From positions 1 to 12,769 of the forward strand of contig JBHLPR010000064.1 in assembly GCA_048939245.1 (NCBI GenBank): DNA of 12,769 bases, given 5' to 3'. Within the stretch, counting starts at the first letter, position 1; each line of letters opens with the position of its first letter. The translations under genes and the position numbers were made by a program. Below the pieces are notes generated by a model. The model searched no databases, had not been told where the DNA came from, and was given only the letters and a program-made list of their open reading frames with translations. Source of the stretch: Promethearchaeota archaeon (GTDB taxonomy: Archaea > Asgardarchaeota > Hermodarchaeia > Hermodarchaeales > Hermodarchaeaceae). This document shows, piece by piece, positions 4,387 through 12,769 of the stretch.

Positions 4387-4806
4387 ATGTCCCCACAACG
4401 GAAAGCTACGCAATCGAAACAAGAGAGATTAATCGAACGCTTTGAAAAGGGACTTCAGCTATTACGTGATATCTCTAATGATGACGTACCAATAGTGGTG
4501 GAAGGGATTAAGGATATTACTGCATTGCGTGGATTAGGATTAACTGGACCAATTCATGCATTAGCAGGACACAATATCGTGAGTTTAGCTGACGAATTAG
4601 CTGATTCGCGTCGCTTGCTCATTTTGTTTGATTTTGATAGACGAGGGGGGCAGCTTACTCGCCATTTGATTAAGCAGCTCGAAGGCCGAGGAGTGAGCGT
4701 TCTTCATAAAGAACGCCATCAGTTAAGGCGGGCGTTTTGCTGGCGTGTCCGAGTGATAGAAGGTTTGAAACGAATTAATAAATCTCCGAAAGGCGCAAGA
4801 TTTTAA
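4387..4806 (+). CDS. Small Toprim-domain protein (COG1658 / RNase M5-like primase-related family)
   Basis: 139 aa with the Toprim catalytic Glu motif IVVEGIKD and the acidic motif LILFDFDRRGG, and no other domain. Confidence 0.75.
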   Translation: MSPQRKATQSKQERLIERFEKGLQLLRDISNDDVPIVVEGIKDITALRGLGLTGPIHALAGHNIVSLADELADSRRLLILFDFDRRGGQLTRHLIKQLEGRGVSVLHKERHQLRRAFCWRVRVIEGLKRINKSPKGARF

Positions 4807-4943: not shown

Positions 4944-6249
4944 ATGGGAGCAAATGCAGAAAGTACTGGAACTACTAAATATTGTATTCGTGGAAAAATC
5001 GAAATTGATGGAATAGTTGAAACCCCTGATGTGGTTGGTGCTCTCTTTGGCCAAACTGAGGGCCTACACTTCATGTCAATGATATGAAGGGGTAATCGGT
5101 GAAGATTTGGATCTAAGAGAGTTACAGCAATCAGGGCGAATTGGTCGAATAAAAGTTGAGCTGCACTCTGAAGGTGGAAAATCCCAGGGTACGATCACAA
5201 TTCCTTGTAGCCTTGATAGAACCGAAACGGCAATTCTTGCAGCAGCAATGGAAACCGTCGATCGGGTGGGACCTTGTGCTGCAAAAATCACACTAGAAAA
5301 ATTGGAAGATGTCCGAGAAGAAAAGCGGAAACAAATCATTGATCGTGCAGTCCATTTATTACGAGATTGGGAAGGAGAAATCTCACCTGATTCGCAAGAA
5401 ATGACTGATACAGTTCTCCGTGGAGCCCGTACAGCTGAGATAATTAAGCTTGGGAAAGAAAAACTTCCCGCAGGTCCAGAAATCAAGCAAGCTAAGACCA
5501 TTATAATTGTTGAGGGAAGAGCTGATGTGTTAGCCCTTCTGCGATCTGGTGTTAAGAACGCGGTTGCAGTTGAGGGAACTTCAATCCCTAAGTCTATTTC
5601 AAATATTGCCAAGGATAAAACAGTGATTGCGTTTTTAGATGGAGATCGGGGTGGAGATCTTATTCTGAAAGAACTTTCCCAGGTTATCGACGTTGATTAT
5701 ATTGCACGAGCACCAACGGGGAGAGAAGTCGAAGAATTAACACATAAAGAAGTAACAAAGGCGCTGCGGAACAAAGTTCCAGCTGAGCAAGTCATAGGAA
5801 AAGCCAAACGCCGGACCCCAACTAAAACTCCTGAAAAAACAAAAGCCAAGAAACGTAGTCGCCGGACCCCAACTAAGAAAACGAAGGAAAAACAGCGCAC
5901 TGAGACCACTACAACTCGAAGAAAACCGGTTGAAAAACCAGAACCCAAACCTAAGGATTTGGGTATCCCGAAAACTGTTCTTAGCTCGGCTGAAAAAATA
6001 CAGCAAACTATGATGGCAATTATCATGGATAGCAAATATAAAGAGCTCAAAGAGACACATGTCGGTGAATTAGCGAACGACTTGCAGGAACTTAAGGAGG
6101 CTAATGTGCTCATACTTGATGGAGTTGTGACACAGCGACTAATCGATATTGCTGAAGAACGCGGTGTCGACTTAATAATTGGAGTGCGGGTTGGAAATAT
6201 TGTCAAGAAACCAGCTAAAATGCGTATTCACACATTCGATGAATTGTAA
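4944..6249 (+). CDS. dnaG: Archaeal DnaG (Toprim primase / exosome-associated protein); ORF interrupted by a 28-nt insert at 5068-5095
   Basis: Exon 1 (ATG 4944, GGTGA 5 nt upstream) encodes [41 protein letters not shown], the conserved DnaG N-terminus. Exon 2, in the +1 frame, continues [60 protein letters not shown]. The Toprim motifs IIIVEGRAD and FLDGDRGGD follow. The ORF track's 5107 TTG start is an artefact of the interruption. The joined CDS (4944-5067 plus 5096-6249) is 1278 nt, or 425 aa plus stop. Confidence 0.85.
5068..5095 (+). other. Candidate bulge-helix-bulge (BHB) intron inside the dnaG coding sequence
   Basis: Central helix 5062-5065 GCCT with 5090-5093 GGGT (G.U, C-G, C-G, U.G). 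3-nt bulges at 5066-5068 ACA and 5094-5096 AAT. Inner stem 5069-5074 CTTCAT with 5084-5089 ATGAAG (6 perfect bp) and a 9-nt loop. Cutting after the 2nd nucleotide of each bulge removes 28 nt, shifts the frame by the required +1, and gives CTA C|TC GGT, which reads L-L-G. The outer helix is weak (only G5061:C5097). Confidence 0.55.
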
Positions 6250-6630
6250 ATGTGGAGAAAGCCTGTCAAGTCAGCAATGCTTAAATATCGAACCCCCGCA
6301 TTTTCGCTTCACCCTTATCAACAAAGCGAGCGTGTAGTTGTGGCTGAAACTAACACCAAGCTCATTCGAATCTTACAATTTGTTGGAGTCTTATTCATAT
6401 TTGCAGCTGGATTCCTCATCATTACAAATCTAGTGATAGAATCGGTTCCATGGGACCAAGCGTCAGCAATTCTTTTACTTTCTTATTTACTAATTTGTGG
6501 GCTCTGCTTTGGAATGACCGGATTAATGAGTGAGAACCCGGAACGGACCCCGAAGTTATTAGCTGAATGGATTATTGTTGTTGCAGCGATTCTTATTTGG
6601 GTTGTAGGAGTGTATTCTTTACTTCCTTGA
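6250..6630 (+). CDS. Hypothetical small membrane protein (about 3 predicted TM segments)
   Basis: 126-aa ORF whose ATG directly follows the dnaG stop (TAAATG). Hydrophobic segments: IRILQFVGVLFIFAAGFLIITNLVI, ILLLSYLLICGLCFGMTGL, WIIVVAAILIWVVGVYSLL. No family recognised. Confidence 0.5.
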   Translation: MWRKPVKSAMLKYRTPAFSLHPYQQSERVVVAETNTKLIRILQFVGVLFIFAAGFLIITNLVIESVPWDQASAILLLSYLLICGLCFGMTGLMSENPERTPKLLAEWIIVVAAILIWVVGVYSLLP

Positions 6631-7735: not shown

Positions 7736-8083
7736 TTAGGTTTTCCGCTTTTTTATTGCATGTCGGACTTTTACTGCAACTCCACGTGTAAGGTCTAGCA
7801 TCTCTTGGGGACTAAGATTGGCTTTTCCCACAGCTAGAAGAGTGTCTTTGTTATCGACCACTAAAACCTCATCACCCGCACGGAGGTCAGAATCGACCAA
7901 ACTAACATGTTTTGCAAAAACACTACGTCCCTTCGCGATAAAATGTCCCACATCCTTTTGAATCATTACTCTACGTTTGGGATAGGGAAGCGATTGGTGC
8001 AAGCGTTGTCCCCCTGCAATTGTTAGAACAATCATTCCATCATGCGCGCGAATAGTTGCAAGAATTATTGAGTTTAATTTCAC
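7736..8083 (-). CDS. Stand-alone pre-PUA/PUA domain RNA-binding protein (ArcTGT C-terminal-like); true N-terminus probably upstream of the listed GTG
   Basis: The C-terminal part (FAKHVSLVDSDLRAGDEVLVVDNKDTLLAVGKANLSPQEMLDLTRGVAVKVRH) is a typical PUA domain. The same frame stays open upstream to 8233 and encodes RRATSQINEKLYRLRGIANYQFNAPIGHLLFPDKCTVEVSKSSGRIRRV, the conserved pre-PUA segment (RxIADYQFG...SxxTGRIR motif from memory), but without an in-frame ATG/GTG/TTG. See the finding at 8084-8245. Confidence 0.8.
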   Translation of the reverse strand: MKLNSIILATIRAHDGMIVLTIAGGQRLHQSLPYPKRRVMIQKDVGHFIAKGRSVFAKHVSLVDSDLRAGDEVLVVDNKDTLLAVGKANLSPQEMLDLTRGVAVKVRHAIKKRKT

Positions 8084-11366: not shown

Positions 11367-11477
11367 GGGCCGATGGTCTAGCTATCTTCAAGAGGATTGA
11401 CACCTCTAAGACTAGAAGGCTATGATATCGCGCTTACACCGCGATGGTCGGGGGTTCGAGTCCCTCTCGGCCCACCA
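11367..11477 (+). tRNA. tRNA-Val (anticodon TAC) with a 34-nt intron in the D-loop; CCA genomically encoded
   Basis: Acceptor GGGCCGA / TCGGCCC, discriminator A, then CCA (11475-11477). Anticodon arm TCGCG-CTTACAC-CGCGA (11428-11444). Variable loop TGGTC. T arm GGGGG-TTCGAGT-CCCTC. D arm GTCT-AGCT|GGCTA-TGAT is formed only after removing 11384-11417. The mature length is 74 nt plus CCA. Confidence 0.9.
11384..11417 (+). other. Canonical hBHBh' intron of tRNA-Val at a non-canonical position (D-loop, about 17/18)
   Basis: Outer helix 11373-11377 with 11419-11423 (5 bp, two G.U). Central helix 11378-11381 CTAG with 11412-11415 CTAG (4 bp). 3-nt bulges at 11382-11384 CTA and 11416-11418 AAG. Inner helix 11385-11388 TCTT with 11408-11411 AAGA, then 11391-11395 AGAGG with 11403-11407 CCTCT and a 7-nt loop. 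Cleavage after the 2nd bulge nucleotide leaves the D-loop AGCT|GGCTA with the conserved GG. Confidence 0.8.
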
Positions 11478-11546
11478 AAGCTTTTATTCCTATAGGAGGT
11501 TCCCTCTCTTCTTTTAAAACCGCCCTATTATTTGAGGTAGAAGAAT

Positions 11547-12650: not shown

Positions 12651-12769
12651 GGACGGTGAGCCTAGGCGGGGGGCTAGAAGCCCCGCAGCACTGCTACGGG
12701 CTGGCTAAGGCTCCCCTGTACCGCAGATGCTCTATACGGCGGGCTGAATGCCGACGCTAGGCTTTCTGA
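12651..12769 (+). ncRNA. Signal recognition particle RNA (7S RNA), 5' Alu-domain portion, truncated by window end
   Basis: Strongly G+C-rich and non-coding. Helix-2-like closure 12659-12665 AGCCTAG with 12757-12763 CTAGGCT (7 bp) encloses a hairpin (12666-12671 GCGGGG with 12681-12686 CCCCGC) and a second long arm. The CCCCTGTACCGC segment (12711-12722) matches the conserved CCUGUAAC-type turn motif of SRP Alu domains as I remember it from archaeal 7S RNAs. The 5' end is approximate. Confidence 0.75.

Follow-up and report, generated by a model that had tools for sequence, protein, structure and literature searches.

Introduction

An intron in the cbf5 pre-mRNA of archaea was reportedly described by Watanabe in 2002, and the strict (hBHBh') and relaxed (HBh') forms of the bulge–helix–bulge (BHB) motif found in non-canonical tRNA introns are said to have been set out by Marck and Grosjean in 2003. 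The present analysis concerns a 12,769-nt stretch of DNA (positions 1 to 12,769 of contig JBHLPR010000064.1, assembly GCA_048939245.1) from a Promethearchaeota archaeon of the Asgard class Hermodarchaeia. In this stretch, hereafter the window, the gene dnaG is broken by a 28-nt insert. Its position, its predicted fold and its evolution suggest, with a probability that we put at roughly 0.8, that the insert is an intron of the type recognized by the splicing endonuclease EndA, of the relaxed HBh' class, located between bases 1 and 2 of the Leu42 codon.

The cbf5 introns, as analyzed by Yokobori 2009 (PMC2738675), are 16–44 nt long, lie within a codon of a conserved catalytic motif and mostly fold into an unconventional BHB, in which cleavage between the second and third bulge nucleotides has been verified. 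Their hosts are Crenarchaeota (Aeropyrum, Sulfolobales and Desulfurococcales), which possess a heterotetrameric EndA, and errors in the annotation of the gene, or its misreading as a frameshift, have been frequent (PMC2738675). Asgard archaea are reported to possess an (alpha-beta)2 EndA with an L1 loop, which confers a broad specificity extending to relaxed motifs (PMC5829648), and to have abundant non-canonical introns in their tRNA genes (PMC11291895). An earlier inspection of the window based on the letters alone (the sequence-only reading) held that BHB introns in archaeal mRNAs were established essentially only for cbf5. This statement has to be widened to include the intron documented in the 5' untranslated region (UTR) of Haloferax HVO_1309 (PMC7714728, PMC10485636), with cbf5 standing as the sole coding-sequence precedent that we found.

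Results

The dnaG frame is broken inside an invariant motif

Translation of the window bore out the frame break noticed by the sequence-only reading. The frame that starts at ATG 4944, 5 nt downstream from a Shine–Dalgarno-like AGGTGA, encodes MGANAE...ALFGQTEGL, continues with HFMSMI and terminates at TGA 5085–5087. The remainder of DnaG is encoded in the +1 frame, which is open from 5083 and runs to 6249. The existing annotation describes this locus as a 47-amino-acid (47-aa) 'hypothetical protein' followed by a 380-aa 'DnaG' (P0001), the coding sequence of which is made to start at TTG 5107. The features predicted at the locus are as follows.

4944–5067, plus strand: dnaG exon 1, comprising the ATG, 41 codons (M1–L41) and C5067, the first base of the split Leu42 codon
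5068–5095, plus strand: putative BHB-type (HBh') intron, 28 nt, ACUUCAUGUCAAUGAUAUGAAGGGGUAA
5062–5065, plus strand: 5' strand of the central helix H, GCCU, paired with 5090–5093 over 4 bp
5066–5068, plus strand: 5' three-nucleotide bulge, ACA, invariant in all loci, with a predicted cut at 5067/5068
5069–5089, plus strand: intron-internal hairpin h', with a 9-bp stem (5069–5077/5081–5089) and a 3-nt loop (5078–5080)
5090–5093, plus strand: 3' strand of helix H, GGGU, the partner of 5062–5065, conserved in the alignment
5094–5096, plus strand: 3' splice-site region, AAU, with a predicted cut at 5095/5096; a 3-nt bulge closed only by G5061–C5097
5096–6249, plus strand: dnaG exon 2, comprising UC, which completes the Leu42 codon, and G43 to the stop codon, and holding the Toprim domain (Toprim_4, E=5e-12)

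Excision of 5068–5095 by the standard cut rule, as had been proposed, restores the frame: it joins CUA-CUC-GGU, which encodes L41-L42-G43 and reads GQTEGL-L-GEDLDL. The in-silico product is 425 aa long and can be aligned gap-free with 25 full-length Asgard DnaG proteins, the residues F35–G43 being invariant among these 26 sequences. Since moving both cuts by 1 nt in either direction yields LIG or LHG, the pair of cuts defined by the structure is the only one compatible with the protein. In a model of a homologue (P0058, mean predicted local distance difference test score, pLDDT, of 80.7), the motif belongs to an ordered stretch flanked by helices in the N-terminal domain; the matches of a PDB sequence search cover the Toprim core only.

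Both exons are under strong purifying selection, as judged from 24 distinct loci. Over the last 32 codons of exon 1, synonymous and nonsynonymous codon differences are in a ratio of 3032:137 and the variable sites are distributed over the three codon positions as 3/3/29. Exon 2, over its first 32 codons, gives 3538:940 and 12/6/31. The protein encoded by the first 18 codons of exon 2 is unchanged in 22 of the 24 loci, with varying third positions, the other two (L028 and L032) having one substitution each. As synonymous changes dominate on both sides of the insert, both exons must be translated and constrained, in different frames; the constraint on exon 1 is as strong as that on exon 2.

All sampled loci of the lineage share the insertion site

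We fetched the DNA of 13 genome loci, 12 metagenome loci and 7 further contigs. An insert occupies the identical site in 28 loci of the lineage, in which DnaG is 65–100% identical, and is represented by 19 distinct sequences. These loci come from metagenome-assembled genomes (MAGs) and metagenomes of many independent projects. By contrast with these 28 loci, four more distant, colinear loci (L013, L022, L023 and L029) are devoid of it; among the loci sampled, none from the lineage lacked the intron. The comparison of orthologues and sister loci suggested by the sequence-only reading thus separates loci with and without the insert, and shows covariation in its stems (see below). The insert is 28 nt long in 27 loci and 31 nt long in the most divergent one (L028, 1540–1570). 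In the latter, the upper stem differs (CAUG/CAUG, one C being bulged) and the loop measures 9 nt, but helix H and the ACA bulge are kept, as are the CUU/AAG lower stem and the GGGUAA sequence at the 3' end. The distribution of the insert over the loci agrees with one gain at the root of this lineage.

The protein databases show the same distribution. When the in-silico-spliced DnaG was used as a query, the 52 closest DnaG entries (65–100% identical, labelled Hermodarchaeia, Promethearchaeota and the like) all lacked the N-terminus or started in the wrong frame, which is what one expects if their genes carry the same disruption. The mis-called proteins (P0001–P0052 and P0062) either start internally or start in the exon-2 frame and read through exon 1 and the intron. 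The 47-aa exon-1 open reading frame (ORF) forms a separate cluster (P0241) of 20 members, which are labelled 'hypothetical protein' or 'DNA primase'. An unrelated 393-aa protein, PrpF of Neisseria, is listed in this cluster as well, probably through a clustering artefact. More distant homologues, 68 among the matches listed, are full-length, colinear at the site and free of the insert, as the sequence-only reading had stated for archaeal DnaG; they read GQTEG-LLG in 67 cases and LLE in one.

The insert and its flanks form a relaxed BHB motif

The pairs of the predicted helices were checked by eye and by folding. The coordinates proposed earlier for the helix, the bulges and the stem were correct, except that the inner stem extends over 9 bp instead of 6 bp and includes one G.U pair. 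Helix H is made of G.U, C-G, C-G and U.G pairs, two of the four being wobble pairs. The 5' half of the motif (H, bulge and h') is canonical, and the element displays all that defines the relaxed HBh' class, i.e. a 4-bp H, one 3-nt bulge, an inner helix h' and a second site located 2 nt 3' of H. The strict hBHBh' class, under which the structure had initially been described, does not apply, the outer helix h being reduced to the single pair G5061–C5097.

The z-score of the fold is modest (-2.08) and motifs of this kind are common, so that the structure alone is not beyond chance: in a custom scan, random windows contained about 170 loose HBh' matches and about 3.5 with an h' of at least 9 bp, versus 3 observed. 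What does exceed chance is the exact placement of the motif, its conservation and its covariation. The region 5040–5110 gave no Rfam match at the gathering and E-value thresholds.

The 10 nt preceding the 5' splice site (5058–5067, GAGGGCCUAC) resemble the 10 nt preceding the 3' splice site (5086–5095, GAAGGGGUAA). Because of this resemblance, the exon-2 frame reads EGVIG through the end of the intron, which mimics EGLLG. The similarity could be a trace of the origin of the intron by local duplication, or a by-product of the pairing of helix H.

The insert evolves like a structured RNA

Structure conservation was scored on an alignment of 20 sequences, in which 97.1% of the cells are paired in the proposed structure versus 37–53% in slid controls. 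Helix H is paired in 98.8% of the cells and displays one-sided changes that maintain pairing (GC/GU at 5062–5093 and CG/UG at 5063–5092). Hairpin h' is paired in 96.1% of the cells and displays compensatory changes at three pairs (CG/UA, UA/UG/CG and AU/GU/GC). Two-sided changes affect three pairs and five cells, values that are reached in 0–4 of 500 shuffles, a lenient control given that the sequences are related, and the slid controls give 0–1. The two most variable positions of the intron, where all four bases are found, are both located in the 3-nt loop, and variation in the insert is devoid of codon periodicity.

The junctions are conserved beyond what the protein demands. The ACA bulge is invariant even though A5066 is a four-fold degenerate third codon position, and the pair G5061–C5097 is invariant in 20 of the 20 sequences even though C5097 is four-fold degenerate; synonymous sites near A5066 and C5097 vary. 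The insert thus evolves like a structured RNA. We also considered a longer outer helix (5055–5059/5096–5100) as a conserved feature and rejected it: two of its five pairs are broken, in 9 and 12 of the 20 sequences.

A tRNA gene of the same contig requires BHB splicing

The window contains one more feature to which the cut rule applies.

11367–11479, plus strand: tRNA-Val(UAC) gene, with a 34-nt D-loop intron (11384–11417) at position 17/18 and a strict hBHBh' motif

The precursor is missed by ARAGORN and scores 26.7 bits with the Rfam model, the gathering threshold of which is 29. In keeping with the mature D-loop predicted by the sequence-only reading, ARAGORN calls a tRNA-Val once the intron has been removed by the same rule. 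Helices h, H and h' are 4 bp long each, and all the pairs were verified. Because a tRNA encoded on the same contig needs it, the organism depends on the BHB splicing machinery.

Proposed splicing of the dnaG pre-mRNA

We infer cleavage, ligation and the enzymes involved from these features taken together. In the pre-mRNA, exon 1 nucleotides 5062–5065 would pair with intron nucleotides 5090–5093 to form the 4-bp central helix, and the intron hairpin (5069–5089) would stack below the ACA bulge. The (alpha-beta)2 splicing endonuclease would then cut 2 nt 3' of each strand of H, i.e. at 5067/5068 and 5095/5096, and an RtcB-type ligase would join the exons. The predicted junction in the spliced RNA is ...GGCCUAC joined to UCGGUGAAG..., and the predicted junction peptide is FGQTEGLLGEDLDLR. 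The unspliced mRNA would give the 47-aa peptide only.

Several observations weigh against splicing. The bulge at the 3' splice site is poorly formed: its closing helix h consists of one G-C pair (G5061–C5097), which is energetically unfavourable in the nearest-neighbour model. In the minimum-energy fold, a 2x2 internal loop (GG/AA) and the outer helix 5055–5059/5096–5100 take its place and the site is found at the edge of the loop. Both insert lengths (28 and 31) are of the form 3n+1, which frameshifting needs and splicing does not, a weak point with two lengths. Finally, none of seven in-silico-spliced full-length DnaG proteins was found in the protein collection by exact look-up, and the best match of a 120-aa query spanning the junction was 73% identical and came from other lineages; we judge these two results uninformative rather than contrary.

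Other explanations of the frame break

The two frames would also be connected by a programmed +1 frameshift at the sense codon that immediately precedes the frame-0 stop (AUA-UGA-A in the window), with about 9–10 extra residues (HFMSMI/EGVI) inserted in GQTEGLLG. In formal terms, 18 of the 19 distinct inserts would allow such a single shift, since their last stop in the exon-2 frame precedes the first frame-0 stop; the insert lengths agree with it, as noted above, and the hairpin might conceivably stimulate it. It breaks down at locus L031, where a frame-0 TAG (intron nucleotides 9–11) precedes a TGA in the exon-2 frame (nucleotides 13–15), so that a single +1 shift cannot join the frames. Elsewhere, the permissive window is restricted to one codon in 12 of the 19 inserts; this codon is not conserved (AUA, AUG, AUU or ACA), and none of these four is able to re-pair in the +1 frame. 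Over the whole set of inserts the last sense codon varies further (AUA, AUG, AUU, ACA, GCA and UCA), no slippery codon being conserved. Moreover, variation in the insert lacks codon periodicity and includes V/A/E changes at what would be a second codon position, and the insertion would break nine invariant residues. Like the sequence-only reading, which set the intron against a frameshift at ATA-TGA-A, we favour the intron and regard frameshifting as improbable.

We consider it equally improbable that dnaG is a split gene, in which a C-terminal DnaG with its own translation start (TTG 5107, for instance) assembles non-covalently with the 47-aa N-terminal peptide. That is how gene callers and the NCBI and JGI annotations (47 aa and 380 aa) present the locus, and a GGTGA resembling a ribosome-binding site lies 4 nt 5' of TTG 5107. 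These signals are not maintained, however: the TTG is replaced by TTA or CTG in L021, L026, L027, L028, L030 and L032, and GGTGA by GGCGA in 9 of 20 loci. In the window, no ATG, GTG or TTG is present in the exon-2 frame from the stop at 5080–5082 to G43, and G43-E44-D45 must be translated because these residues are invariant while their codons vary synonymously. A split gene would also have its break inside an invariant motif of a compact domain that is confidently modelled, and it leaves the covariation of the stem and the invariant junction nucleotides unexplained.

Translational bypassing of the 28 nt, of the T4 gene 60 type, is less probable still. A ribosome taking off at GAG or GGC (5058–5063) and landing at GAA or GGG (5086–5091), for example, would make a product of consensus length; the similar 10 nt before both junctions and the hairpin within the gap fit such a hop. 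Yet no stop directly follows the take-off codon, the next codon being a sense codon at every candidate site, and the take-off and landing codons are neither matched nor conserved, the landing GAA being AAA in L008 and GAG in L027. GGC/GGU and GGG are a poor match for one tRNA-Gly, and the invariant L41-L42 would be replaced by V/A/E and I/F/V. We know of no description of translational bypassing in archaea.

Other candidates were discarded on simpler grounds. Group I and group II introns have a ribozyme core of more than 200 nt and inteins are in-frame protein-splicing domains; the insert is 28 nt long, out of frame and without an Rfam match. It is not a mobile repeat, being present as a single copy in the window and once per locus in the locus sequences searched. 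Stop-codon reassignment was rejected because, past the UGA, frame 0 contains more stops and no DnaG sequence.

Lastly, a pseudogene or a sequencing or assembly artefact, which a formally disrupted gene on a metagenome-assembled contig might suggest, is effectively refuted: the insert recurs at the same site in 28 loci from MAGs and metagenomes of many independent projects, in keeping with the earlier view that it is not a typical sequencing error, both exons are under strong purifying selection without any other disruption, synteny is conserved and the fetched loci yielded no second dnaG.

Gene content of the contig and neighbourhood of dnaG

Besides dnaG and the tRNA-Val gene, the contig carries genes for 5S rRNA, DUF1512, Trm5/TYW2, a class-I aminoacyl-tRNA synthetase, V-ATPase subunit D, NAC, PAN, MBF1, aTrm56 and TFE-alpha. 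The following elements call for comment.

4387–4806, plus strand: 139-aa ORF directly 5' of dnaG, with a weak Toprim match (PF01751, E=1e-4)
6250–6630, plus strand: 126-aa ORF between dnaG and atpD, without a Pfam match
7736–8083, minus strand: 115-aa ORF restricted to two domains, C2 patch and PUA, of archaeosine tRNA-guanine transglycosylase (ArcTGT; PF14810 and PF01472)
12654–12769, plus strand: G+C-rich contig end, with a weak, 3'-truncated match to positions 1–86 of archaeal signal recognition particle (SRP) RNA (RF01857, 18 bits, E=0.016)

A 123–138-aa counterpart occupies the position of the 4387–4806 ORF in the syntenic loci L026–L030 and L032, and this ORF may encode a small stand-alone Toprim protein paired with DnaG. 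At the place of the 6250–6630 ORF, relatives have an ORF of 89–94 aa. The 7736–8083 ORF may be the stand-alone C-terminal piece of a split ArcTGT, and 12654–12769 is probably the 5' part of an SRP RNA gene cut by the end of the contig.

Discussion

If dnaG is spliced as proposed, it is, as far as we found, only the second archaeal protein-coding sequence with an endonuclease-type intron, and the first in the Asgard archaea, the closest known relatives of eukaryotes. We found no report of an intron in dnaG or in any Hermodarchaeota mRNA among open-access papers and bioRxiv preprints, and this is probably the first coding-sequence BHB intron to be reported in Asgard archaea. Splicing would further mean that a gene at the core of information processing can keep such an intron, under selection, throughout a lineage of class rank.

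There are practical consequences as well. None of the public Hermodarchaeia DnaG entries that we inspected is annotated correctly: a truncated DnaG accompanies a 47-aa 'hypothetical protein', or the protein is given a start in the wrong frame. These errors affect phylogenomic marker sets and domain inventories. A conserved gene that is split, an HBh' motif and cut sites that give back the consensus together provide a search image for mRNA introns in archaeal MAGs.

DnaG is both a primase and a cap subunit of the exosome. It is conceivable, though we think it rather unlikely, that the intron acts as a checkpoint tying DnaG synthesis to EndA and RtcB, or that it is the first visible case of a larger set of EndA-spliced introns in Asgard coding sequences. 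Should such a set exist, frame-restoring mRNA splicing by the tRNA-splicing machinery, akin to that of HAC1 and XBP1, would already be present in archaeal relatives of eukaryotes.

In the HAC1/XBP1 splicing of eukaryotes, a stress-regulated process, the endonuclease is IRE1 and, in metazoa, the ligase is RtcB. Like the putative dnaG intron, the HAC1/XBP1 intron is a short intron of a coding mRNA, cut at stem-loops by a protein endonuclease and sealed by a tRNA ligase, with a change of frame. The use of IRE1, the different recognition loops and the regulation by stress set the two apart, and the likeness is one of analogy only.

The other comparisons are with archaeal systems. The HVO_1309 mRNA of Haloferax volcanii is likewise a substrate of the archaeal splicing endonuclease (PMC7714728; PMC10485636), but its intron is in the 5' UTR, its removal restores no frame and the enzyme is of the alpha2 type, which needs a strict BHB. 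The non-canonical tRNA introns of TACK and Asgard archaea share with dnaG the 4-bp H, the 3-nt bulge and the h' hairpin (PMC5829648; PMC11291895). In their case a tRNA body is there to assist recognition, whereas the dnaG host is an mRNA and the outer helix h is essentially absent.

Compared with cbf5, the dnaG intron belongs to Asgard archaea (Hermodarchaeia) instead of Crenarchaeota, its length is almost fixed and all the sampled members of its lineage carry it; cbf5 splicing was established by cDNA analysis and in vitro cleavage, whereas that of dnaG is what we infer. In most other respects the two cases run parallel. Both have very short coding-sequence introns (16–44 nt in cbf5, 28 or 31 nt in dnaG) that split a codon in a highly conserved motif, mostly with a relaxed BHB and a cut, verified in one case and predicted in the other, between the second and third bulge nucleotides. 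Both introns are restricted to a lineage for which a heterotetrameric EndA of broad specificity is reported, both genes have been mis-annotated, and both proteins act in RNA metabolism, Cbf5 as a pseudouridine synthase and DnaG as a subunit of the archaeal exosome (PMC7667871).

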